Source: Escherichia coli | GTDB taxonomy: Bacteria; Pseudomonadota; Gammaproteobacteria; Enterobacterales; Enterobacteriaceae | Reading direction: 5' to 3' (one strand) | DNA length: 64,000 bases | Assembly (NCBI RefSeq): GCF_044324785.1 | Contig: NZ_CP172127.1 | Position numbers and translations under genes: made by a program | Notes under the pieces: model-generated | What the model saw: the letters and a program-made list of their open reading frames with translations, nothing else | Told to the model about the DNA's origin: nothing | The model's database searches: none | In this document: positions 7,448 to 57,914 of the stretch, piece by piece | How positions within the stretch are numbered: the stretch's first letter is position 1 | How the letters are laid out: the number at the start of each line of letters is the position of its first letter

Positions 7448-8371
7448 TTATTGGTTTCTGAGGAAAGCGATTCTTGAAAGGGTCATTTGCGTCTGGCAGT
7501 CGACCATTTTCTTGACTTCAGCATCTGTTCCCTGCATTGAAACTTTACCGCACATAGCATCCTTAGTTTTGATCCACTGACGCTGAGAAGGCAGCAAATC
7601 TTTTTTCTTCGCCGGGGTTAACTTGCTCCAGACGGTACTCAAATCAGAGTCGGCATTCGCAAATGCCATTCGGGACTGATCAAGGCTGTCAGCTTTTTGT
7701 GGCTGAAGTTGTGCCTGTCTCTCTATTTGCTTCTCCGCCTCATACTTAGCCTGTTCCTGCGCCCTGAGTTGCACCTGTTGTTCCGCTTCAATTTGGCTCT
7801 GTTGGGCATCCTTAGCCTGCTGGATTTTCTGCTGCTCAACGATCGGGTTGATAATAGAAAGTGATGTCAGTAAAGCGGCGCCCACTGATATCGGATTATC
7901 AGAAGAGGTTTTTACAAAAACGTTTTTCTGATCGTCGGTCGCCTGCACGGTGTAGGTGATACGTTTGGAAAAGGCGTTTGCGTTGTTCTCCAAAAACAGG
8001 CTTTCCATTTGCTTGTCGAGATTACGATTAAAATTCTTTCTGTAATCATCAGAAAGCTGGACGTATTCGTTCGCAGGTAGAGTCATCGTCACGGTCCCTT
8101 CACAAGTTTTCATTGTGCTGCCCGTGTCACTTGATGTTGTGGAGATTTCAGAGATGGCTAGTTTGATCTTGTCCAATGTGCTTCGTTTGGTCTGATTAGT
8201 GACATCAGGGTATTTATCGACCTGTTCAGAGAGTCCTTCATAAGCAGATTTTTTTAATAAATCCATAAGCGCTGACTGGGTTATTTCCGAAGAACAACCG
8301 ATCACATCTTTTTTGTTATCACAGCCTGTAAGGGCAATGGCGAGTAAGAGTACTGAGTATTTTAATCTCAT
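7448..8371 (-). CDS. lipoprotein with C-terminal DUF1311 (LprI-like) domain
   Basis: lipobox LTGC after signal peptide; Gln-rich coiled coil; C-terminal QRQWIKTKDAMCG...DCQTQMTLSRIAFL pattern. Confidence 0.55.
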   Translation of the reverse strand: MRLKYSVLLLAIALTGCDNKKDVIGCSSEITQSALMDLLKKSAYEGLSEQVDKYPDVTNQTKRSTLDKIKLAISEISTTSSDTGSTMKTCEGTVTMTLPANEYVQLSDDYRKNFNRNLDKQMESLFLENNANAFSKRITYTVQATDDQKNVFVKTSSDNPISVGAALLTSLSIINPIVEQQKIQQAKDAQQSQIEAEQQVQLRAQEQAKYEAEKQIERQAQLQPQKADSLDQSRMAFANADSDLSTVWSKLTPAKKKDLLPSQRQWIKTKDAMCGKVSMQGTDAEVKKMVDCQTQMTLSRIAFLRNQ

Positions 8372-11513: not shown

Positions 11514-12002
11514 TTACCCCAACCTCAAGTTCTTTAAACGATAAGTCATCGCATCGTCAGATACGCCAAAATGATGCGCCATTATATAACTTGGTTGGCC
11601 GTCAGCGTGCAGTTTTCTGACCTCATCTACCGGCATCAGAAGTTCTGCTGCGAACTTGTTCGCAAAAATTTCATCAGGATGCGTTCCGGCGCTTGCGGTT
11701 TCGCCACGTAAATCAACGTACTCATATTCATCGCTATGCGATGCTTGCCGGGCGATGTAATGCCCCAACTCATGCCCACATGAAAAACGTTGACGAACTT
11801 TGTTGTCATCACTGTTTAGAAAGATCGCTGGATCTTGATCTTTTTGTTTAATCAGTGCGCCAGAAACTTTCCCAGGAAGATCGGTAATAAAAACATCTAA
11901 TCCCATGTCGTGAGCAATTTTCGCTGGATCAACAGGGAAACCACGCCCGCACCAGAACGTGTCCAGCACTCGCCGGGCGTGCTCTCTTGGGTTGGTAGCC
12001 AT
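11514..12002 (-). CDS. ImmA/IrrE-family zinc metallopeptidase (DUF955)
   Basis: HELGHY zinc-binding motif and downstream EIFANKFAAELLMP segment. Confidence 0.7.
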   Translation of the reverse strand: MATNPREHARRVLDTFWCGRGFPVDPAKIAHDMGLDVFITDLPGKVSGALIKQKDQDPAIFLNSDDNKVRQRFSCGHELGHYIARQASHSDEYEYVDLRGETASAGTHPDEIFANKFAAELLMPVDEVRKLHADGQPSYIMAHHFGVSDDAMTYRLKNLRLG

Positions 12003-12435: not shown

Positions 12436-12461
12436 GCCCTGACAGCGCCAACTGTCAGGGC
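12436..12461. other. perfect 10-bp stem hairpin (gccctgacag / ctgtcagggc) in a 567-bp non-coding stretch
   Basis: inverted repeat with 6-nt loop; T-rich flank on minus strand. Confidence 0.5.
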
Positions 12462-28769: not shown

Positions 28770-29146
28770 GCTACTACGATGACCTCCGGGCCGGCGATGA
28801 GGAGATGATTCTGGAGTGGGGACGGCCCGTTAAATTACGCGGTAAAACCGCCCCCATTATCGCTATTTTCAACGAGCCTTACGCGCGCGTTGACGTTCCT
28901 CACGCTGGTTTTATTACCGGTACAGTAACGAGCCTGACGGCGCTCTCAGACGACGTCGCTGGCATTGTTGCGCGTGACGTCGTCCAGGTTCCAAAGCAGC
29001 GCAGTATCGCTGATGACGGCTCAGTTACCTGGTCTTGTTGGACCGATTACGTTGTTAAAGAGCCTCAACCTGATGGCACAGGGCTCACGAATATTTTTTT
29101 AGAGCCTCACACGTCCAGCGAAAACAGCGAGTATTCAAAATACTAA
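28766..29146 (+). CDS. head completion / head-tail connector protein (FII-position)
   Basis: position after FI-like gene. Confidence 0.4.
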   Translation: MSYYDDLRAGDEEMILEWGRPVKLRGKTAPIIAIFNEPYARVDVPHAGFITGTVTSLTALSDDVAGIVARDVVQVPKQRSIADDGSVTWSCWTDYVVKEPQPDGTGLTNIFLEPHTSSENSEYSKY

Positions 29147-29167
29147 GTGGGACCGCGGTCCCACTTA
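29144..29167. other. 24-bp perfect palindrome (taagtgggaccgcggtcccactta) at head/tail module junction
   Basis: perfect inverted repeat overlapping the stop codon; no T-run. Confidence 0.6.
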
Positions 29168-34878: not shown

Positions 34879-36384
34879 ATGAGCACTAATTTTTTACACG
34901 GTATTCGCACGCTCGAATACGACGACGGCACAAAAGAGATTAGCACGGTAGATATTTCAGTTATCGGGATTGTTGGTACTGCACCGGATTCCGCGCAATC
35001 AACCAGTTCCGAGTTAATAACAGGGAGTGCTATTTTAAAAAACCGCCTGAAATTCACGGCGACGGGACAGGGGGTGAACGGCAATTCATGGAGCGTAGAG
35101 ATTCTCGAAACCGATCCGGACGGCTGCACGGCACTGTGGAGTGATATGCCCGACGGGAGTCGACGTTTATCAATATCAGTCGCACCGGCATCCGGCTCGC
35201 ACGGATACACCCCAGCAGAAATCGTGCAGGCAGTCACAATAGCAAACCCGCCTCCGGACCAATTATTTTTAACAATTACGGCAGTAGATGTCGAGGAGGA
35301 CGCGGGAAATGTGACTGCCTCACCGTTGCAATATTTAAGCGGCGGCAGTGATGAGGCGTTCCCAATTAATACCCCCGTACTTGTTGCCGGGAGTCCAAAA
35401 AAATCCGCTTTACTGGGTGAGCGCGGCACGTTGCCGAAAGATATTGCCGATATTTTCAATCAGGACAACGCCTTGCTTGTTGTTGTACGAGTAAAAGATG
35501 ACAAAGACACAACAAAACAACAGCAAAATATTATCGACGGTGTCAAGCAGCTGGAAAAATCGAAACAGTTAACCGAAGTCACACCGCGTATTATTATTGC
35601 ACCAGATTTTAGCGCAATTGATGCGATAGCCGCTCAGCTTGAGGTGGCCGCAAATAAACTCCGGGGGGTGTGTTATATAGACTCTCCGCGCGCTGCTACC
35701 CCTGCAGACGTTGTGAATCGCCGGCAAAAACTCGGCGGACGTGCTGAGTTGTTGCGTCCCCGTGTTTATTCAACTAGCGACGTCGGGGGGCAATCAAGAC
35801 CGTATTCTGCCATCGCTGCTGGTTTACGAGCCAGAATTGATAATGAAAAAGGGTTTTGGTGGAGTAAGTCGAATCAAAATATTTATGGAATAACAGGGCT
35901 TGAGCAGGTTGATGATTTCATTATTGGCGAGACAAACTGCACAGCGAACCTGCTGAACGCTAGTCAGGTCAGCACCATCATTCGCTATGACGGATTCCGA
36001 CATTGGGGTAACTATCTGTGCAGCCTGGATCCGCAATGGTCGTTTGAATGCGTTCGTCGAACAGCTGACGTAATTGAGGATTCTATAGCCCGGGCAATGA
36101 TGACCGATTTTATTGATCGCCCGATAGACCTGCATCTCGGAACAGACGTTGTCGAGTCGATAAACGCGTATCTGCATAAATTAGAGGAGCAGGGTGCGAT
36201 TAACGGAGGGCGTGCGTGGTTAGACGGTGAGCTGAATACAAAAGAAAGTCTGGCCGCTGGCAATCTTTATATTAATGTTGATTTTGGTCCGAAATCTCCG
36301 GCACAAACAATTACGTTAATGTACCGCATTAATAATGACTATACAGTTGAAGCACTAGCCTCACTTTTTAAAGAAACAGCCTGA
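34879..36384 (+). CDS. contractile tail sheath protein
   Basis: N-terminus MSTNFLHGIRTLEYDDGTKEISTVD resembles P2 FI / Mu L. Confidence 0.85.
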   Translation: MSTNFLHGIRTLEYDDGTKEISTVDISVIGIVGTAPDSAQSTSSELITGSAILKNRLKFTATGQGVNGNSWSVEILETDPDGCTALWSDMPDGSRRLSISVAPASGSHGYTPAEIVQAVTIANPPPDQLFLTITAVDVEEDAGNVTASPLQYLSGGSDEAFPINTPVLVAGSPKKSALLGERGTLPKDIADIFNQDNALLVVVRVKDDKDTTKQQQNIIDGVKQLEKSKQLTEVTPRIIIAPDFSAIDAIAAQLEVAANKLRGVCYIDSPRAATPADVVNRRQKLGGRAELLRPRVYSTSDVGGQSRPYSAIAAGLRARIDNEKGFWWSKSNQNIYGITGLEQVDDFIIGETNCTANLLNASQVSTIIRYDGFRHWGNYLCSLDPQWSFECVRRTADVIEDSIARAMMTDFIDRPIDLHLGTDVVESINAYLHKLEEQGAINGGRAWLDGELNTKESLAAGNLYINVDFGPKSPAQTITLMYRINNDYTVEALASLFKETA

Positions 36385-36401
36385 TAATTCGGAGAGTAAA
36401 T

Positions 36402-36914
36402 ATGTCAGACAGCAACGCTTACCGCGCGTTTGCGCTATTCGTGCAGGGCGAACGGGTTTTAAATTGTACTGAATATACTCCTGTCGATATGAAAATAATC
36501 GAGGACGAGTTTAAAACAGGCGCGATGGATACAGCTATCACATTAGATGGCGGTATGGAGAAAATGTCAGCCAGTTTTAAAGTTTCGGGTTCTGATTCTG
36601 GTGTTATGAGCTATTTCGGGTTAATACCGGGAGTCAAGACGCGGTTTGAAATTCGTAGTGCGTACACAGACTCCTATGGAATAAATTTTGAGCGTATTGA
36701 TACCTACGAGGGACTTATTACGGCAATCACTGATGACGCTCAGGGGACTGATTCAAAATCGTCAGTGGGGCAATCAGTAACGATTGCGCCGAGCTATTAT
36801 AAACGAGTTCAAAATGGACGAATTATTTACGAAATTCATCCTGCAAAAATGAAACGCGTTATCAACGGTGTTGATGTTCTTGCGGGCGTCGCTCGAATCC
36901 TTCATGTATATTAA
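36402..36914 (+). CDS. tail tube protein
   Basis: 170 aa following sheath. Confidence 0.8.
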   Translation: MSDSNAYRAFALFVQGERVLNCTEYTPVDMKIIEDEFKTGAMDTAITLDGGMEKMSASFKVSGSDSGVMSYFGLIPGVKTRFEIRSAYTDSYGINFERIDTYEGLITAITDDAQGTDSKSSVGQSVTIAPSYYKRVQNGRIIYEIHPAKMKRVINGVDVLAGVARILHVY

Positions 36915-36926
36915 AAGGTAAGTAAA

Positions 36927-37208
36927 ATGGAATCCTTATTAGACAGTATGACTATTACGCTCTCTCGACCGTTTATTATTAAGGGCGAGAGCTGCGATAC
37001 AATTACTATTCGCGAACCCAAATTACGCGACCGCATTATGTTCAGTAACGATAAAAGCAGTCTTGAAGAGCGGACAGCGACAATGCTGGCGCGCCTGGCA
37101 AATCTGGAAAGAGAGGATTTATATGCGCTCCCCGCGTGCGATTACGATCAACTGGAGGCCGCGTTTAACGAACTGGTAAAGCACCCGAAAGACCGACATC
37201 AGATATAG
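36927..37208 (+). CDS. tail assembly chaperone (P2 gpE-like)
   Basis: 93 aa between tube and tape measure; -1 frame open for about 55 codons from 37169 to 37335. Confidence 0.6.
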   Translation: MESLLDSMTITLSRPFIIKGESCDTITIREPKLRDRIMFSNDKSSLEERTATMLARLANLEREDLYALPACDYDQLEAAFNELVKHPKDRHQI

Positions 37209-37316
37209 TTATTCTGATTCCGTTTATTGCGAAAAAACTTGCCATCCCGCCTGATACGCAAATGGACCTGCCGTATCGGGTTTTTAATTTCTATGTAGAC
37301 GAGGTCATGAAAACCG

Positions 37317-38957
37317 ATGGCTATTTCTCAAAACTTTAAAACGCAGGTTGTATTCGGGGGGCGAATAGACCCGTCGTTTCGGCGCGGTACAACAGAACTC
37401 AACGACGCCATTCGGCAGACGTCGTCTACTGTCGGAAAATTAACGAAAAGCCAGGATAAATTAAAAGACAAAATCGCAGCAATGAAACTGGCAGGTAAAG
37501 ATGTCTCTGATTTATCTGCTCAATATCAAAAGCTGGACCGTCGGATAAAGGCGACAACGCAGGACCAGGAGGCGCTGAATACCCAGCTTGCTAAAAAACA
37601 GCGGCTGGAGAAGTGGACGGGGCGCGCAAAAGGTGCTGCAAAATGGGGCGGACGAGCCGCCGCAGGTGCGGTGAGGGCCACGGGACGGGGTATCAAATGG
37701 GGGACGCTGGGGGCCGTGGGTCTGCTCGGCGGCGCGGCTGCTGGCGCGCTGGCAATGAATGCAGAGACGTCAGAAAAACTCGGTCTGGCGAAGTCCTACG
37801 GTGTTGGCATCGAAAAATACGCTGCGTGGGAAAATATTGGTAAAGCTGCGGGCCTGAACGGCGAAAATGTTGGTGACCTGTCAGAAGAACTTACAAATAA
37901 AATCGGCGAAATCGGAAACGAAAAAAACCTGAACCCCATGTTGTTTCAAATTGGCTTGACAAAAAAACGGATGGCTAAATGGGATCGAGAAAAACAGTTC
38001 AATGAAGTTATGCGGCGTATCTCTGAAATGAAGGATGATCAACAGGCGGCGAGTCTGGCTGATCAGCTAATGGGGGGAGAGGCTAATAAAATAATGACCT
38101 ATATGCGGGCGACTGGTAAAAGCTGGGAGCAGACTATGTCGGACGCTCAAAAATCAAACCTGCTAACGAAAGAAGGGGCTGAGGGTGCAGCGCGCGCGCA
38201 CGTATCCGTCACGAATCTGTGGGGGGCAATCACATCGGGGCTGGCAGATACTCTCGGCAAAATCGGAGGGGAACTCGCGCCGACGTTTGACGCTATGCGA
38301 GACGGGCTGGCATCCTGGTTTAAAGAGAATCAAGGGGGGGTTGTTGATAGTATTAAAGAATGGGTTAAGCCAGAAAATATGAAAAAACTTTGGGAGGGGA
38401 TAGTCAGTTTTGGCGAGGCGTGCGTTAAATTCGGAAAAATAATTTGGGCAGTCGTAAAAAAACTGGAGTGGTTAATCCCGGACGAGAAAACAGACGAGGA
38501 ACAGCGCGTATATAACGAAGAATATAATAAAGCGTATCAGGAATTCATGGATAGTGGTGGTAAATATTCACCGAACCCAGGACTGGCAGCAGATAATGTA
38601 GCAAAAGCAAAAGCCGACGAAGCCGTGGATAATATGCGACACCCTGAACGTCTTGCTCGTGCAAAATCACAGGCTGAATCAATGCTCTCGTTTGCTAACC
38701 CGTTTACTGGATTAATAAATAAAGACTCAACGCCTGAATCACAAAACTCAGCAACGTTGAATATTGACGCGCTGAGACAGGCAGTCGCAACTCCAGCGCC
38801 AGAGCAAAACAATAAAATTGAAATCAATATTATCGGAGCAGCAGATCCACAATCAACACAGCAGGCTGCCGCATCGGGTGTGCTCGACGGGCTGAGACAG
38901 GTTGCGAGTTCGTACAATCGTGGTGCAATGTTTGATAAACCAGCGGCGGCGGGGTGA
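37317..38957 (+). CDS. tail tape measure protein
   Basis: 546 aa, coiled-coil and Gly/Ala-rich segments. Confidence 0.7.
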   Translation: MAISQNFKTQVVFGGRIDPSFRRGTTELNDAIRQTSSTVGKLTKSQDKLKDKIAAMKLAGKDVSDLSAQYQKLDRRIKATTQDQEALNTQLAKKQRLEKWTGRAKGAAKWGGRAAAGAVRATGRGIKWGTLGAVGLLGGAAAGALAMNAETSEKLGLAKSYGVGIEKYAAWENIGKAAGLNGENVGDLSEELTNKIGEIGNEKNLNPMLFQIGLTKKRMAKWDREKQFNEVMRRISEMKDDQQAASLADQLMGGEANKIMTYMRATGKSWEQTMSDAQKSNLLTKEGAEGAARAHVSVTNLWGAITSGLADTLGKIGGELAPTFDAMRDGLASWFKENQGGVVDSIKEWVKPENMKKLWEGIVSFGEACVKFGKIIWAVVKKLEWLIPDEKTDEEQRVYNEEYNKAYQEFMDSGGKYSPNPGLAADNVAKAKADEAVDNMRHPERLARAKSQAESMLSFANPFTGLINKDSTPESQNSATLNIDALRQAVATPAPEQNNKIEINIIGAADPQSTQQAAASGVLDGLRQVASSYNRGAMFDKPAAAG

Positions 38958-39382
38958 CAATGAGTGATGCAATAAACGGTGCTGAGGATATCATGCTCGG
39001 TTTGGGTGATTTCATTTTTGCTATATCAACAGTAGCGTACAACAAACTGCAACGTAGTGACGCCTGGCGCTGGGCTCAGCAAACACGATTCGGGAAAAAC
39101 GACGCATTGCAGATAACCGGACGACCGAACCCCACAATCACGATCGATGGGAAAATAAACGCGTTATTCCTTGATGGGTGCGGCATTGGCTTGTTAACAG
39201 ATTTGCGGGCACTGGGGAACTCGGGAGAACCCCAGCAACTGGTGCTGGGGACCGGGGAGGTGAAGGGGTACTGGGTTATCAGGGAGTTAACAGAAACGCA
39301 AAACAGTTTTCTGAAAGGAGGGACCCCAAAATCGCAGGACTTTTCACTCACGCTCGAATATTATGGAGCTTCGCTAGATTAA
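38954..39382 (+). CDS. tail protein U
   Basis: pattern matches P2 gpU family. Confidence 0.7.
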   Translation: MTMSDAINGAEDIMLGLGDFIFAISTVAYNKLQRSDAWRWAQQTRFGKNDALQITGRPNPTITIDGKINALFLDGCGIGLLTDLRALGNSGEPQQLVLGTGEVKGYWVIRELTETQNSFLKGGTPKSQDFSLTLEYYGASLD

Positions 39383-39544
39383 TACAAAATCAAGCGCTAC
39401 CAGAGCACTTAACAAGTATAAAAATAATAAAAAAAACTACGAGCATAAATGTAAAACAACCTGATGGTATTTTTTTTTGACGCCGAAATACTAATACCTC
39501 TCCGACTACTAAAATTAATTCTCATTATGAAATCCTTTTAATTA

Positions 39545-39769
39545 ATGGGGCCCCAAATGATTACATACACTACACGGGACGGTGACCGTCTCGATCAGAT
39601 CTGCCTTGCTGTCTACGGGAGAACAGCAAAAACGACAGAAACCGTGTTATATCAGGTTTTAAATTACGGCGTAACGGATATGTGTGCCGTGTTTCGTGCA
39701 GGAGAAAAAATTGTTTTACCAGAAATCGACCCCGAACCGGCTAAAAAAGAAACGCAATTATGGGATTGA
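39545..39769 (+). CDS. tail protein X (LysM-like)
   Basis: DRLDQICLAVYGRT ... ETVL pattern as P2 gpX. Confidence 0.7.
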   Translation: MGPQMITYTTRDGDRLDQICLAVYGRTAKTTETVLYQVLNYGVTDMCAVFRAGEKIVLPEIDPEPAKKETQLWD

Positions 39770-39772
39770 TGA

Positions 39773-40816
39773 ATGAGTGATTACGTAAATACTGGCGTGG
39801 AAGCATGGAAGCCCAATTTTTATATATCTGCTGATAATGAAAACATCACGGATAAAATAAGAAAAGGTTTGATCAATATCACGCTCACAGATTATGGTGG
39901 TTCGAGTAAACAGACAGACGAATTACGCGTAGCAATCGTTTCTGAAACTCTGAAAATTCCGGCCCGCGGAGTAAAAATCAGTATTGGGCTCGGTTTCGGT
40001 AATCAGATAATTGATAAGGGTGTATACATCGTTGATGGTGCGAGCAGTGGCGGTGAACCCCGGGTAGTTGATTTCACAGCAAAAGCAGCTCCGATGAACG
40101 CATCAAAAGGCTCTCCGACAGTTCAGAGCAAAAAAACTCGCTCCTGGAGCGACGTCACTGTCAGCAATATCGTTGCAACAATAGCGAGCGATAACGGGCT
40201 AAAACCTCGCGTATCAAAGCGGTTTGCAGACAACATTATCACGCAGCTCGATCAAGTCGGCGAGTCAGATATGCACCTGATGTCGCGGCTCGCAACGAGA
40301 TTCGATGCGGTGAGTAAACCCGCGGGCGGGTACTGGATATTCCTGCCGCGCGGCGCGGGCGAATCTGTTAGCGGAGCACCGCTTCAGCACTACACGCTCA
40401 CGCGTCGTGATAACTCAAGCTGGGGTTATTCGAGAAATGGACAAAACGGTGATAGTGGCGGAGGTGGCGAAAATGCGGAGCCAACGTATTTGATCAAATA
40501 TCACGATACAGCAACGGGGCAGATCAAAGAATTGCGTACGGGCAGTGGCGGCGATCCTGTAATCGAGTGGCCGGCAGTGGAGCCGTCGCTTGATGCAGCG
40601 AAAGAAGCTGCGCCAGGACTCAAGGGCGGTGCAGCTAAAAAAGAGTTCTCCATGACTTACACGACGCCCGCGACGCTCGATTTAGTATCGCTGACTGCAG
40701 AATGCAAAGTCACAACACAAGGATTCGGGACAGAGGAGGACCGAGACTGGACAATCAATACGTTGACGCTGACGCTGGCTGAAAACGGATTCTCTGCGCG
40801 ACTGTCGCTGGAGTAA
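39773..40816 (+). CDS. tail protein D (late control D family)
   Basis: 347 aa, last gene of P2-like tail order. Confidence 0.8.
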   Translation: MSDYVNTGVEAWKPNFYISADNENITDKIRKGLINITLTDYGGSSKQTDELRVAIVSETLKIPARGVKISIGLGFGNQIIDKGVYIVDGASSGGEPRVVDFTAKAAPMNASKGSPTVQSKKTRSWSDVTVSNIVATIASDNGLKPRVSKRFADNIITQLDQVGESDMHLMSRLATRFDAVSKPAGGYWIFLPRGAGESVSGAPLQHYTLTRRDNSSWGYSRNGQNGDSGGGGENAEPTYLIKYHDTATGQIKELRTGSGGDPVIEWPAVEPSLDAAKEAAPGLKGGAAKKEFSMTYTTPATLDLVSLTAECKVTTQGFGTEEDRDWTINTLTLTLAENGFSARLSLE

Positions 40817-40821
40817 ATGAA

Positions 40822-42648
40822 ATGGCAATAATATCGGGTGTATACGCAAATGGGGTCGGCGAGCCCGTTGTCGGCGTTCAGTTAGTATTAACAGCACGGG
40901 TCACGAGTTCACGCGTAGTAATGACCACTGTTGTAGAGCAAGAAACAGGCGCGGCGGGTGAGTACAAATTTGATATGAAGCCCGGAGTTTACGTTGTCAC
41001 TGCTAGTGCGGCATATCTCGGCGTGATTAACGTTAACCCGGACAGTGTTGACGGCACGTTAAACGACTATTTGACTAATTTTAGCGCAGACGAACTGACG
41101 CCAGCTGCGTTGGCGGAGATCCAGGAACTCGTTGCCACAGCACAAGCCGCTGCCAGTGTTGCCAGCGCCGCCGCAACGGAGGCCAGGCAGAATGCCGCCG
41201 CCGCCGCTGCTGCTGCGCAGATTTCGACGGCAGCGGCAGGGAGCGCCAGATTTGAGAATTTTGACGAAATTATCAATGTCAATACAACAGCAATGCTGGA
41301 GCTGGAAAAACCGGAGGTGTTAGATCCGGATATTGCAATAACTATCACAGAGACGATTAATTATAACTATATTGGCCCGGTAAACGGATTTTGCGACGTT
41401 ACTAGCCCGCTTGAATATAAAATTCAAATGTACGCCTACACAACAGGCGAATATTTTAACGGCGAAACAAATTTAACAGCGGACGGGAAGTTTTCTTTTA
41501 AACGTTCCTGGGCTGGTGCAAAACAATTCAGATTGGTGCGCGTAGCAGATAGTAAATGGATCACTACGCTGGAATACCCGCTGTGTATTCGCAGTTACTG
41601 GATGCCCGCTGACGCCGATCCCGAGGTAGTCAGCGTCATGAAAGACCGTTGCTACACATATGATCAGGCGTGCGCGGCGCTGGCTCTCATGGCGCAGAAT
41701 CACGAGGCGGTAGAGCGTTATGTTACGGGTCTGTGCGCCCTGGTGGGTGAAAACGGCGGCATTAAATTTTTTGTTAACCGGCTGTCCGCACAGTCCTCCC
41801 GCGAATATTACCGCACGGGTAACGCGGCGTGGGTGTTGTACGCCCTGGCATTCTATCTGAGCAAATACCCTACCGGCAGTAACGCTGAGTTAGCGCGCGC
41901 GAAATTAAACGCCGGGCTAACCTGGCTGGACGGTCTGAAGGTTGACGCCAGCGGCGACCCGCGCCACGGCTTATACATGGGCGGCAACGGTAAATATCTG
42001 GAGGACGGATCATTTGATCCGAATTATGTTGCGACCTGGTGCGCGCTCGAGCACAACGTTGATATTTATTTTTTATTCGAACTCGTTGGACGGTTAACCG
42101 ATTTTACCGGATACGAACTGCGAGCCACCACGCTGGCTGCAAATATCGTGGAAAAATTCTGGATTGAGAGCGAGGGGCGATTCCGGCAGGGCGTGCACAT
42201 TGACGGCCCGGACAACGCCGCAGCGCTGGATCAATCGAGTTGGGGCGGGATATTCGCAGTAAAAGCCGCGCCGGAGTTGGCGGAAAAATGCCGCCGTTAT
42301 ATGGAAAGATTCCGGTTCGGCACACTGGAGAGCACCGGTTATACACCGTATCACCCGGACTACGGATACAGCGGCCATAGCCGTGGCGTGTGGACCGAGG
42401 GTACAGCGGGTGTAGCACTATTCGAACGTGCGCTAGGGAACGAGCAGAGAGCTACCGATCTGATCGCGGGATTAAAACCACTGCGTAATGAATACGGCTA
42501 TCGCGACTCATGCGACGATAAAAAATACGACACACTGCCGGACTGGCCGTCGACTACAAACACCGCTTGGGTTATTTTAACATGCAAGCCGGCGGGGTTT
42601 TGGTGCGTAGATTTCCCGGTATTGGACGTTGGTATCGTCAGGTACTGA
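40822..42648 (+). CDS. side-tail-fibre-like N-terminal domain fused to putative (alpha/alpha)6 glycoside-hydrolase-like domain
   Basis: N-terminal ~100 aa parallel lambda Stf N-terminus; Ala-rich linker; ~400-aa C-terminal domain with glycosidase-like character. Confidence 0.5.
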   Translation: MAIISGVYANGVGEPVVGVQLVLTARVTSSRVVMTTVVEQETGAAGEYKFDMKPGVYVVTASAAYLGVINVNPDSVDGTLNDYLTNFSADELTPAALAEIQELVATAQAAASVASAAATEARQNAAAAAAAAQISTAAAGSARFENFDEIINVNTTAMLELEKPEVLDPDIAITITETINYNYIGPVNGFCDVTSPLEYKIQMYAYTTGEYFNGETNLTADGKFSFKRSWAGAKQFRLVRVADSKWITTLEYPLCIRSYWMPADADPEVVSVMKDRCYTYDQACAALALMAQNHEAVERYVTGLCALVGENGGIKFFVNRLSAQSSREYYRTGNAAWVLYALAFYLSKYPTGSNAELARAKLNAGLTWLDGLKVDASGDPRHGLYMGGNGKYLEDGSFDPNYVATWCALEHNVDIYFLFELVGRLTDFTGYELRATTLAANIVEKFWIESEGRFRQGVHIDGPDNAAALDQSSWGGIFAVKAAPELAEKCRRYMERFRFGTLESTGYTPYHPDYGYSGHSRGVWTEGTAGVALFERALGNEQRATDLIAGLKPLRNEYGYRDSCDDKKYDTLPDWPSTTNTAWVILTCKPAGFWCVDFPVLDVGIVRY

Positions 42649-42676
42649 CAATTATAATTTTTGGAGTTTTTTATAC

Positions 42677-43096
42677 ATGGTCGTTAAAAATATTCTTGCC
42701 TTTGGGATTATGTGTGCGCTTGCTGGTTGTGCAACCAAGCCAGTCTCAAACGAGCAGGCTACTCCCGTTCCAGAAAAACAGGTAATCAATAGCGCAATAC
42801 TCGAAAAAAGAGATGGGACAGGAGAGGTGATCATCAAGCGTGATTCGGGTTTCTTTGGGAGCGCGTGCTTTTCCCGTGTTTATGTTGATGGTAAAGAGGT
42901 GGCAGATTTAGGTACAGCTCAGAAAGTCGTTGTATACCCAACGATTGGTGATCATGTCTTCAGCGCGTGGCCAAAAGGAGTATGTGGTGGTGGCATGAGT
43001 GAGCAGGCGGGCAAGGTGACAACAGATCGTACTTTGATGTATCGCATAGGTTACGGTTCAAACGGTGAATATGGCATTCACCCAACTGCGTTTTAA
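42677..43096 (+). CDS. lipoprotein (about 139 aa from internal ATG), prophage-end cargo
   Basis: GGAG RBS then MVVKNILAFGIMCALAGCATK with lipobox; last gene before att. Confidence 0.5.
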   Translation: MVVKNILAFGIMCALAGCATKPVSNEQATPVPEKQVINSAILEKRDGTGEVIIKRDSGFFGSACFSRVYVDGKEVADLGTAQKVVVYPTIGDHVFSAWPKGVCGGGMSEQAGKVTTDRTLMYRIGYGSNGEYGIHPTAF

Positions 43097-43253
43097 CTGT
43101 GTTGGGTATGCGATTTTATTCGCATACCCCTTAGGGCAATTGACGATACTTCCAAATGACCATTATTTTACGTGTGGCCTCGATGTTGCGCACATGAGAG
43201 TTCTATATTCTTTCAAACAGGATTATCCCATTGATTTAATTATACTTTCGTAT

Positions 43254-43314
43254 GGTCTCGAAAACCGGAGTAGGGGCAACTCTACCGGGGGTTCAAATCC
43301 CCCTCTCTCCGCCA
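43254..43314 (+). other. 3' fragment of tRNA-Ser (anticodon CGA; anticodon loop to CCA), putative prophage attachment-site remnant
   Basis: ggtctcgaaaaccggagtaggggcaactctaccgggggttcaaatccccctctctccgcca matches the 3' part of a serU-type tRNA-Ser; 5' acceptor/D-arm absent. Confidence 0.6.
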
Positions 43315-43983
43315 CTTTATCAATGACTTATCTCCCGACTTCCCGCCTTGCTTTTCCTAAACAGAACAATCGTAGAATATTCTTGAAGGGTTAGATCGTC
43401 ACTGTTTTCTGTTCGATACTGTGACATTCAGCACTTGATTCGCTATGGATCTGACAGGAAGGTTTCGAGCGAAAATCTGCAGTTATTCAGTCGTTTTCTT
43501 ATCGCTCACCATTATTCTTTTAGACATTCATCCTATGAAACTGCCGCAAAGTTGGTGGTGGGAACTGAAGTTGCGTAGAGAAGGGGGCAATAATTGAGCC
43601 AAAAAAGGAACGCGGCCGTCAGATTAAAGCCGCGGGACAAAGTCCATAATTTCCAAGAGTTGTTGAATTTCCCAGCTTTTTTGAAAGCCTTTGTATCATA
43701 CTAACAAGTAAAAAAGGTTTAAATACCAAAATTAACCTATATTTCTGGTTAGCTTTACCATGACAGATGACTTGCTTCTGGAGACATTGGCGCTGCCAGT
43801 CTGTATTGGTGAGTTGTGTATTTATTGTTCGCCGCTTTCTCGGTTTTTTTCTACAGACATAATAAAAAAGACACGTCTCAAGCATGAGCGTGTCTGAGTT
43901 TGTTTTATTTATTTGTCTTGGTAAATTATTGTCGTTACTACCAGGCACTGTTCTGTTAAATAATTGAAGTCAGCGCAAAAAAA

Positions 43984-44634
43984 TCAATGAGACATCATCT
44001 CCTCGACCACTTCTTCGCTACTCAACTGATAGGGATAATACGTTGGCCAGTTTTCCATTTCATTTAATAAAGATTGCTGTGAATCATTACCCATAAAAAT
44101 GTGAAAATGAGATGATTTTCGTGGTGCAATTATATGATCGCTAAATTGAATATATTTAGGGGCTTTGCTTTCAGGATCTTTACATTCGAATAAGTAACGA
44201 ACGCCTTTCTTGCCTGATTTATAGGTGAGTATTTTGTATCCATCATAATCATATTTACAGGATGTTGTTTCATTATTTCTATGGAATTCAACAATGCCGT
44301 CCTCAATGCCAATCATCTCGATATCTGTCACATAACCTTTGCGATAATAATCTTTAATTTCAGCAAATGTTTTAGTTTTATCTGCATCCGCTTTCTTCTG
44401 AAAGACGGGGTCAAGTTTGCCACTTTGCAGTAAAGGATAAACGGATTGCCAGACTCCATCCCAGTCACTGAGCGTTCGGTTTTGTACATTGGCATCATCA
44501 AAAACACCATTAGCAGCTTTTTGTTCGACCTCTGTTAAGGGTTTGCCGTGTGAGTGATGACCATGCGAAAAGGCAGGAGCGCTAACAATAAAGACACCTA
44601 AAGCAACAGCCAGTTTATGAAGACGAATCGCCAA
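43984..44634 (-). CDS. zinT: zinc/cadmium-binding periplasmic protein ZinT
   Basis: 216 aa; signal peptide then HGHHSHG. Confidence 0.85.
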
Positions 44635-50174: not shown

Positions 50175-50765
50175 AGTGTATTCCTTATTGTTGCTTAGTT
50201 AGGGTAGTCACTATATTTGCGACTGAGCTGGTCGCTATTTTTAACCAGGCTGGAAAATTGAGTCAATATATCGAAAGCGGTAGTCGGCGGGTGTAAGTAT
50301 GTAATGATGATGCTGCACTGGTGTTGAATATTATTCACGCCAAATTTTCCTTATTGAGCTACGTCGTCGCAAGTGGCCTCAATGATTTTAGACCATTATC
50401 AAAGGTACGGGGCGGCGGGGAGAGATTTAGTTATGTGGAATATTATGGTACTGATGAATATTTATATCCCGGATTGGCAGAGAAAAAGCTTTTTTCATGC
50501 ACTATTTTTGCAAATATTTCTATATGGGAGGCGGTTTTGTTGCGGATTAATTCATAAAGAAATGCATTTGGGTGTTGGCTGGAAGAGACGCTAGTAGATT
50601 TTATTGAGCCAGGAGGGGCGGGGTAATGTGCTGTATCGATATGCTTTGGCAATTGCGTGTGCCGCAGATGGAGATGAAATGCCAATAAAAAAGCCTGAGT
50701 TCGATGAGGGACGAACTCAGGCTATTGTTATGTTTTACAGTAACACGCCGCAGCGCGTTGGCTGA

Positions 50766-57744: not shown

Positions 57745-57914
57745 AAGGGTATCATTAACACCAGGCCGGATCACATCCGGCCTGGTGTGCCAATGCCTGC
57801 AATGAATGATAGTCGCGTCTTATCATGCCACCATTATAAAATTATCGCTGTTTTGCGGTACGTTATCGCCGGGTTATGCCAGAATCATAAAAAAGCAGGT
57901 TGGGAGTCGTCAGG

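Follow-up and report, generated by a model that had tools for sequence, protein, structure and literature searches.

Gene 15 of phage HK97, the first moron, lies between gene T and the tape measure protein (TMP) gene, and its product gp15 excludes phages (PMC3594210). The outer-membrane lipoproteins Llp and Rtp45, the latter of ~6 kDa, bind the periplasmic side of their receptor and change its outer loops (PMC12685063). The mEp phage lipoproteins Lpp021 and Lpp010, encoded in the structural gene cluster, exclude phages that use OmpA or LamB (PMC11893012), and Ltp of Streptococcus phage TP-J34 is described as an exclusion lipoprotein (PMC3952083). Here we describe a gene for a 139-residue lipoprotein at the right end of a prophage, located in a 64-kb stretch of Escherichia coli DNA (contig NZ_CP172127.1 of assembly GCF_044324785.1; the whole stretch is called the window below). 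The gene is a self-contained cargo cassette, or moron, at the prophage right end, and very probably belongs to the class of moron-encoded outer-membrane lipoproteins.

Like HK97 gene 15, the window gene is a small add-on in the tail operon of a temperate phage, with a G+C content (GC) unlike that of its neighbours and relatives that occupy the same slot between T and TMP (T-TMP). The family as a whole follows the promoter-gene-terminator layout by which morons were defined in HK97 and HK022; for the window copy itself both end signals are candidates. In contrast to the lipoprotein studied here, gp15 is an inner-membrane protein without sequence relation to it, and the window cassette is placed at the prophage end instead of in the T-TMP slot. 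With Llp, Cor (of phi80, N15 and HK022), Rtp45 and Lpp021/Lpp010, the window protein shares a lipobox, a predicted anchor in the inner leaflet of the outer membrane, and a gene position among tail and receptor-binding genes; on its short tether, the domain would moreover reach the rim that outer-membrane proteins expose to the periplasm, which is where Llp and Rtp45 bind. Llp and Cor are small proteins, as is Rtp45, whereas the mature window protein has a mass of ~13 kDa and displays no sequence or profile similarity to any of this group. Two further differences are that the window lipoprotein does not co-vary with the C-terminus of the tail protein J, and that its family accompanies both siphovirus and myovirus tails in several bacterial orders.

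Lambda Bor/Iss and TraT are likewise prophage-borne outer-membrane lipoproteins encoded by cargo genes, with precursors of ~100-140 residues, but the window protein has no Pfam-A match and a predicted prealbumin-like sandwich fold. The DUF2846 (PF11008) and PBP1c C-terminal (PF06832) domains are also small beta-sandwiches and often lipoproteins, although the window protein matches neither at E-values up to 0.1. Ltp is said to act on the incoming tape measure protein and has a helical fold. It resembles the window protein in being a prophage lipoprotein that could act without a specific receptor, and the window family often adjoins the tape measure gene. Given its Gram-positive host, its helical fold and its unrelated sequence, the comparison with Ltp is a functional one only.

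The lipoprotein gene occupies 42677..43096 on the plus strand, as an open reading frame (ORF) running from ATG to stop. Its product begins MVVKNILAFGIMCALAGC (in a longer read, MVVKNILAFGIMCALAGCATKP). Residues 1-17 form a signal peptide, MVVKNILAFGIMCALAG, followed by Cys18, and L15-A16-G17-C18 matches the lipobox pattern used here, a signal peptide ending in [LVI][ASTVI][GAS]C. The Cys18 codon (42728-42730) marks the predicted acylation site, and the mature domain has 121 residues. All of the 35 close and 74 distant relatives compared have this cysteine. The original prediction of a 139-residue lipoprotein with the lipobox LAGC is confirmed. Ala19 at position +2, which is invariant among the close relatives, is followed by Thr20 at +3, and there is no Asp at +2. 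Under the enterobacterial Lol rule, lipoproteins without Asp at +2 are sorted to the outer membrane. The Ala at +2 hence predicts Lol-dependent sorting of the window lipoprotein to the outer membrane.

A full-length match was found to phrog_890, annotated 'lipoprotein' (E 4.4e-52, 176 bits), with residues 4-139 aligned to positions 2-136 of the 136-position profile. A word-indexed search returned 94 relatives at 45-94% identity, all of them unnamed, from Escherichia, Salmonella, Citrobacter, Klebsiella, Enterobacter, Yersinia, Xenorhabdus and other genera. An exhaustive search of a 50%-identity library extended the family to 955 clusters, nearly all single-domain proteins of 130-145 residues. 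The hosts are temperate phages of enterobacteria, Vibrio and Pseudomonas, including phages of soil, plant-root and marine bacteria. The window protein itself has no Pfam-A family at E-values up to 0.1 and no sequence match in NCBIfam, PADLOC or the PDB; the one spurious NCBIfam match concerns the tail fibre. Weak Pfam matches do occur among the 74 diverse relatives, with DUF2846 in 17 (best E 1.6e-4) and the PBP1c C-terminal domain in five (best E 7.9e-5), and one database relative carries a PF11008 tag. The window protein does not reach the DUF2846 gathering cut-off, and the relation to DUF2846 is remote at most. Membership would add nothing on mechanism, because DUF2846 is without known function; the sole paper found to mention it concerns a Bdellovibrio protein that its authors reassigned to DUF4360. 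The window protein is already present in databases, as 'hypothetical', and the moron papers on APEC phiv142-3 and LF82 deal with other genes.

The AlphaFold model (predicted local distance difference test score, pLDDT, 89.4; predicted template modelling score, pTM, 0.83) is an eight-strand prealbumin-like beta-sandwich. The tether to the membrane appears short, because the segment directly after the cysteine (residues 21-50) is already ordered in the model. Among the 74 diverse relatives, R55, D56, G58, C64 and C103 each occur in 90% or more, and R123 in all; the 35 closer relatives show little or no variation in G125-Y126-G127 and the C-terminal PTAF. A C64-C103 disulfide probably holds the sandwich together. 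Comparison with the allele found in sequence type 131 (ST131) prophages gives synonymous and non-synonymous divergences of dS 0.40 and dN 0.032 (dN/dS 0.08), and the 98 consecutive residues 42-139 are identical despite the dS of 0.40. These values indicate that the lipoprotein is under strong purifying selection, and a pseudogene reading was dropped on the dN/dS.

The limits of the mobile unit follow from comparison with other prophages. BLAST against the locus of the O25:H4 strain 18044 (L002) aligns window positions 42623-43132 at 88.3%, with both flanks unmatched. This ST131-type prophage matches the window at 89% over 36000-40820, and beyond that only over 42623-43132, where its copy follows gpD and lies next to yecA, a different integration site. 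The mobile cassette (42623..43132, plus strand) consists of the upstream 54 nucleotides (nt), the lipoprotein gene and a perfect hairpin (43104..43129), with homology ending 3 nt past the latter. GC drops at 42600, from 55-58% in the 3' half of the preceding fibre gene to 45-47% over the cassette. In strain JNE151685, which has a prophage with a J-type tail at serU, the sequence is 95% identical from mid-fibre (41344) through the lipoprotein gene to the attachment (att) arm. APEC20/16 carries the window's prophage type at serU with another fibre C-terminus. Beside its attR, a remnant (L023 43185-43330) retains the last ~100 nt of the lipoprotein gene and the hairpin, the rest having been lost. 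Among 5,426 complete E. coli genomes, 435 (~8%) contain the gene, nearly all as the ST131 allele; the window allele occurs in one, and ~20 genomes retain only the last ~100-137 nt plus the hairpin.

Genomic context was surveyed for relatives on 80 IMG/VR contigs. The slot between K and I is the most frequent (49 contigs), followed by T-TMP (8) and TMP-M (4). Four contigs have the gene behind I without a detected J, one more has an Arc-like gene after it, in one it lies between I and J, and in three it follows gpD or a tail fibre gene at the element end. In at least 75 of the 80 the gene is in a tail-module slot; at least five different slots are occupied, and the strand is always that of the tail genes. 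The same variation is seen in the annotated phages HK639, mEp390 and Pseudomonas vB_Pae_BR123a and in Klebsiella, Salmonella, Yersinia and Citrobacter prophages. The gap to the upstream gene is often only 30-50 nt. In Vibrio phage H20 the lipoprotein gene lies 15 nt behind the cI repressor gene on the same strand, and two distant relatives adjoin an integrase fragment or a DUF4224 gene. A 28%-identical relative, L109 1176-1589, stands in a non-phage setting beside kdsB, pyrG, kdsA and kdsD-like genes, which serve synthesis of the lipopolysaccharide precursor Kdo. It is possibly a chromosomal ancestor or a hint of an envelope link.

Morons were recognised here by patchy presence and varied slots, foreign base composition, an own terminator and an own promoter that is active in the repressed prophage. 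The window gene displays variable presence, several slots and a GC unlike that of its neighbours. The proposal that it is a lysogenic-conversion type of cargo is well supported by its variable presence, the slots (at least five), the GC drop, the terminators and promoter-like block of its relatives, and the gene's place behind cI in Vibrio phage H20. The accompanying suggestion of a surface-modification type found no support: a surface-modifying enzyme was dropped as a candidate, given a 121-residue beta-sandwich without a match to any enzyme family.

Upstream of the window gene, a candidate promoter, TTGGTA-18 nt-TATAAT, lies at 42629..42658 on the plus strand and matches the consensus at 10 of 12 positions; a Shine-Dalgarno-like GGAG (42663..42666, plus strand) stands 10 nt before the ATG. 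Sites of equal quality number 13 in 128 kb (both strands), giving a chance of ~0.008 for one in the upstream 80 nt. Across the relatives, the best upstream promoter scores exceed those of control windows (mean 8.3 vs 6.9; 9.5 or above in 17% vs 0.9%), with a very small Mann-Whitney p that is not a true probability, the loci being related. In four different slots a common block was found, in which a -35-like hexamer is followed after 17 nt by TAGGATT, with TAATATT and TAAGATT as variants, and then by a ~25-nt leader with an AGGGA ribosome site. The TAGGATT block lies ~30-60 nt before the start in L003, L027, L029, L030, L033, L069, L092 and L093, where the leader reads CTTTTAC...GGGAATAGGGAT-ATG. 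It is tighter than a plain -10 element requires and may be a regulatory site as well. For the window copy, late transcription running on from the fibre gene, which ends 28 nt before it, can safely be expected, and expression in the lysogen is no more than plausible.

Phage exclusion of some kind is our leading guess for the function, a tentative one that could well prove wrong. The precursor would be exported, and the mature 13-kDa beta-sandwich, with its very short tether, would stay near the membrane. A weak promoter of its own would drive expression in the lysogen, and read-through of the tail operon would add a second phase of synthesis late in the lytic cycle. The lipoprotein would act on the envelope so as to hinder the entry of other phages. 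Co-variation with the receptor-binding end of the tail was examined in 23 prophages that carry the gene in the K-I slot and have a complete J gene, taking the last 250 residues as the J end. Lipoprotein identity correlates with that of K (Spearman 0.77), of I (0.86) and of the N-terminal part of J (0.65). One lipoprotein cluster (95% identity) is paired with four J C-terminal clusters, and a near-identical lipoprotein is found with both a myovirus-type and a J-type (siphovirus) tail.

A number of observations weigh against exclusion from the lysogen. The correlation of lipoprotein identity with that of the J C-terminus is only 0.26, and 25 of 34 pairs of lipoproteins at least 97% identical have unrelated J ends; the sample is small and of related prophages, side fibres are left out of it, and one receptor may serve phages with differing J ends. 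Searches of Pfam-A, PHROGs, NCBIfam, PADLOC and the PDB gave no match, by sequence or profile, between the protein and a characterised exclusion or serum-resistance protein. Llp, Cor and Rtp45 are about half as large as its mature form, and the fold matches of the model are generic sandwiches only. Tail-module morons also encode functions other than exclusion, as in the cases of Bor and Lom. No paper on the phrog_890 family was found in the literature, nor an experiment on any member. The promoter search proposed with the original prediction gave a divided answer: the 10/12 site is present, but its predicted start (~42665) falls on the Shine-Dalgarno GGAG, and the ST131 allele has not kept the site. 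The TAGGATT block of the relatives cannot be aligned to the window allele, and is therefore not evidence for a promoter of the window copy. At the other end of the cassette, a terminator scan does not call the hairpin, which has no U-run 3' of its stem. A tblastn search of a phage collection returned uncharacterised 'lipoprotein' or 'hypothetical' genes only, and no mEp021-type phage.

That the lipoprotein does not track the receptor-binding end of J lowers the standing of a Llp/Cor-type model and removes the usual argument from receptor-protein pairing. Two options are left by this result, a receptor-independent effect on the envelope or a role unrelated to phages. Within phage exclusion, we favour a protein that targets either the incoming tail, in the periplasm, or some conserved component of the envelope, and consider masking of one specific receptor less likely.

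The second of these options would make the lipoprotein a factor of host fitness or virulence (serum or complement resistance, envelope-stress tolerance, adhesion), comparable to lambda Bor/Iss or TraT. Its cargo positions and outer-membrane lipoprotein nature are as in Bor, the gene is intact under strong purifying selection, and its presence in ~8% of complete E. coli genomes, nearly always as the ST131-type allele, would suit such a factor, as would the distant relative found among kdsB, pyrG and kdsA and not in a phage. In contrast, the lack of any Pfam family at E-values up to 0.1 extends to those of Bor/Iss and TraT. Occurrence of the family in phages of soil, plant-root and marine bacteria fits poorly with a role in host serum, and the near-exclusive placement in tail modules better fits a phage-related role. 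We regard a Bor-like role as unlikely, though worth keeping in view.

A further possibility is that the protein serves mainly in the lytic cycle, as a late product that alters the envelope of the dying cell and spares progeny from being lost on debris or on infected cells. Such a second role, in which released progeny are not lost on debris or infected cells, is described for T5 Llp (PMC12685063), and a preprint on Pseudomonas prophages presents the same concept (bioRxiv 10.1101/2024.03.05.583538). The invariable co-orientation with the tail operon, often across a gap of 30-50 nt and 28 nt after the fibre gene in the window, is consistent with late expression. The terminator behind the gene and the conserved promoter-like block before it, as seen in the relatives, are, however, features of independent expression, and the gene's place behind cI in phage H20 points to expression in the lysogen. 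The missing pairing with the phage's own receptor-binding end is a further point against a mainly lytic role, which we judge improbable.

The hairpin itself (43104..43129, plus strand) forms the 3' boundary of the cassette. It begins 7 nt past the stop codon and consists of the arms GGGTATGCGA (43104-43113) and TCGCATACCC (43120-43129) around the loop TTTTAT, giving a 10-bp stem with six G-C pairs, a 6-nt loop and no T-run. The 9 nt that follow the stem read CTTAGGGCA, with two T in 8 nt; a perfect 10-bp hairpin directly behind the gene and lacking a U-tract is thus present as had been predicted. The stem has a folding energy of -17.3 kcal/mol alone, and in a 76-nt context the hairpin reaches z = -3.5 against shuffles. 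Perfect hairpins of at least 10 bp (loop 3-8) are enriched in the window, at eight distinct cases against a mean of 0.57 in dinucleotide shuffles. Others with stems of 10-14 bp include 57758-57788 (14 bp, the strongest in the window), 50692-50723, 12436-12461 and 29144-29167. An Rfam scan of 42000-44200 returned nothing for the hairpin, its matches reflecting the tRNA-Ser fragment alone. Among the relatives, 53 of 63 distinct downstream sequences contain a hairpin, in 40 of the 63 at least five of the 8 nt behind it are T, and in several others an A-tract and T-tract extend the stem. The hairpin stands at the position of the relatives' terminators but without a U-run, and is therefore read as a transcript-end element. 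It may act as a 3'-end stabiliser or weak terminator, and may be degenerate because the prophage end leaves nothing downstream to protect.

Alternatively, the repeat could function as DNA instead of RNA, as a palindrome at the att arm to which a recombination or regulatory protein binds. Its 10-bp arms form an inverted repeat around a 6-bp spacer, its distance of 124 bp to the att core would fit inside the attP arm of a tyrosine integrase, and it has no U-run. Against this, the hairpin moves with the gene to the yecA-side prophage, where homology ends 3 nt later, and is therefore part of the cassette and not of att; a role in att machinery was dropped on the same observation. It also remains in the APEC20/16-type remnants where the lipoprotein gene is deleted. 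The APEC20/16 arms, GGGATATGCGA and TCGTATATCCC, show an added A:T pair, with both arms changed, and one G-C to G-U change, which preserves RNA pairing and not DNA symmetry. The ST131 arms, GGGGTATGTGAG and CTCATACCCC, have one added G-C pair and one internal mismatch. Retention of stem pairing despite these arm changes is suggestive, in a comparison of three alleles that is not statistical. Together with the terminators found at the same position in relatives from mid-operon slots, these points make a DNA palindrome very unlikely. A decaying remnant without function is hardly credible: ~20 E. coli genomes do keep only the last 137 nt with the hairpin and the window allele is rare (1/5,426), but the ORF is intact, dN/dS is 0.08, 98 consecutive residues are identical at dS 0.40, and the motifs are invariant across hundreds of clusters.

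The element that carries the cassette ends at a tRNA gene. Homology with the uninterrupted K-12 serU locus begins at 43254, which is base 30 of serU, and 43254-43314 is therefore the displaced 3' 61 nt of that gene, i.e. attR (43254..43314, plus strand; tRNA-Ser(CGA), ending in CCA). The serU 3' 28 nt are matched exactly there and have a single copy within the window, in which ARAGORN detects no whole tRNA. No credible ORF was found in 43096-43254, and the lipoprotein gene is hence the last gene of the prophage, just inside the att site, as initially proposed. The phage-side arm between hairpin and att core (43130..43253, no strand assigned) is 124 nt long, and is 94-99% common to the serU prophages JNE151685 and APEC20/16 and not to the yecA-side ST131 prophage. 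In APEC20/16, at the same serU site, the integrase lies ~4-5 kb to the left of the point that matches window position 687; the intact tRNA, attL and integrase are beyond the left edge of the window. A map drawn from this relative runs from the integrase through early genes, the Q antiterminator, lysis genes, a lambda-like head, a P2-like contractile tail and the tail fibre gene to attR, with the tail genes in the order V, W, J, I, sheath, tube, tape measure, U, X, D in the APEC20/16 record. The lipoprotein gene is hosted by a prophage in serU whose regulation and head are of lambda type and whose tail is of P2 type. To the right of attR lie the host genes zinT, msrQ, msrP and hiuH. The cytochrome b561 homologue yodB, which stands between serU and zinT in K-12, JNE151685 and APEC20/16, is absent: 222 nt without a K-12 match (43762-43983) stand in place of ~1 kb of the K-12 sequence.

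The gene preceding the cassette, 40822..42648 on the plus strand, was identified by domain searches as a 608-residue tail fibre gene with an N-terminal PF08400 domain and a C-terminal domain of ~430 residues. It is a mosaic that follows gpD: the PF08400 part is common to APEC20/16 up to 41120, and the C-terminal part joins from 41344. The C-terminal domain is shared with the J-type prophage, with phiSTEC1575-Stx2k (69%) and with a jumbo coliphage, and is more distantly like minor tail proteins of Microbacterium and Thermus phages. Its sequence suggests a helical-repeat and possibly glycosidase-like domain. In phiSTEC1575-Stx2k the same fibre type is followed by a different small gene and no lipoprotein gene. 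A chaperone or structural role for the lipoprotein in the tail fibre was dropped as a candidate, in view of the invariant export signal and lipobox and of the Stx2k phage's same fibre type without the gene.

Other regions of the prophage also vary or resemble cargo. Between gpU and gpX (39383-39556) lies a variable spacer, which in the window is an unrelated AT-rich stretch of 176 nt with ORFs of only 25-38 residues. In APEC20/16 this spacer holds an 86-residue 'superinfection immunity protein' gene on the opposite strand. Likely cargo in the early region includes 7448-8371 (minus strand), encoding a 307-residue protein annotated 'lysozyme inhibitor LprI family', and 11514-12002 (minus strand), encoding an ImmA/IrrE-type metallopeptidase, both named by 97% homology to annotated APEC20/16. 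A YdaT-family toxin gene and an ORF6N-domain gene are located nearby.

On a broader and more speculative view, which we consider improbable, phrog_890 as a whole would be a very widespread and previously unrecognised class of receptor-independent exclusion proteins in Gram-negative prophages, periplasmic sandwiches tethered to the outer membrane that intercept a conserved step of tail penetration. The step intercepted could be insertion of the tape measure or tail tip, or the action of the K-type cell-wall endopeptidase, whose gene is the one most often adjoined by the lipoprotein gene. If true, phrog_890 would be the Gram-negative counterpart of Ltp or of T4 Spackle, and receptor independence would explain why the genes ride with tail backbones and not with receptor-binding ends.

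The window finding alone, a terminal moron, is an ordinary one, whereas a simple screen for phage exclusion would be reasonable for the wider family. Its relatives reside in very many prophages of Klebsiella, Citrobacter, Salmonella, Yersinia, Vibrio and Pseudomonas, and prophage cargo genes shape the phage resistance and fitness of clinical E. coli. If the lipoproteins do not exclude phages, the family represents one more conserved envelope protein. If they do, a larger and receptor-independent type would be added to the few known exclusion lipoproteins, with relevance for the prediction of host range in phage therapy.

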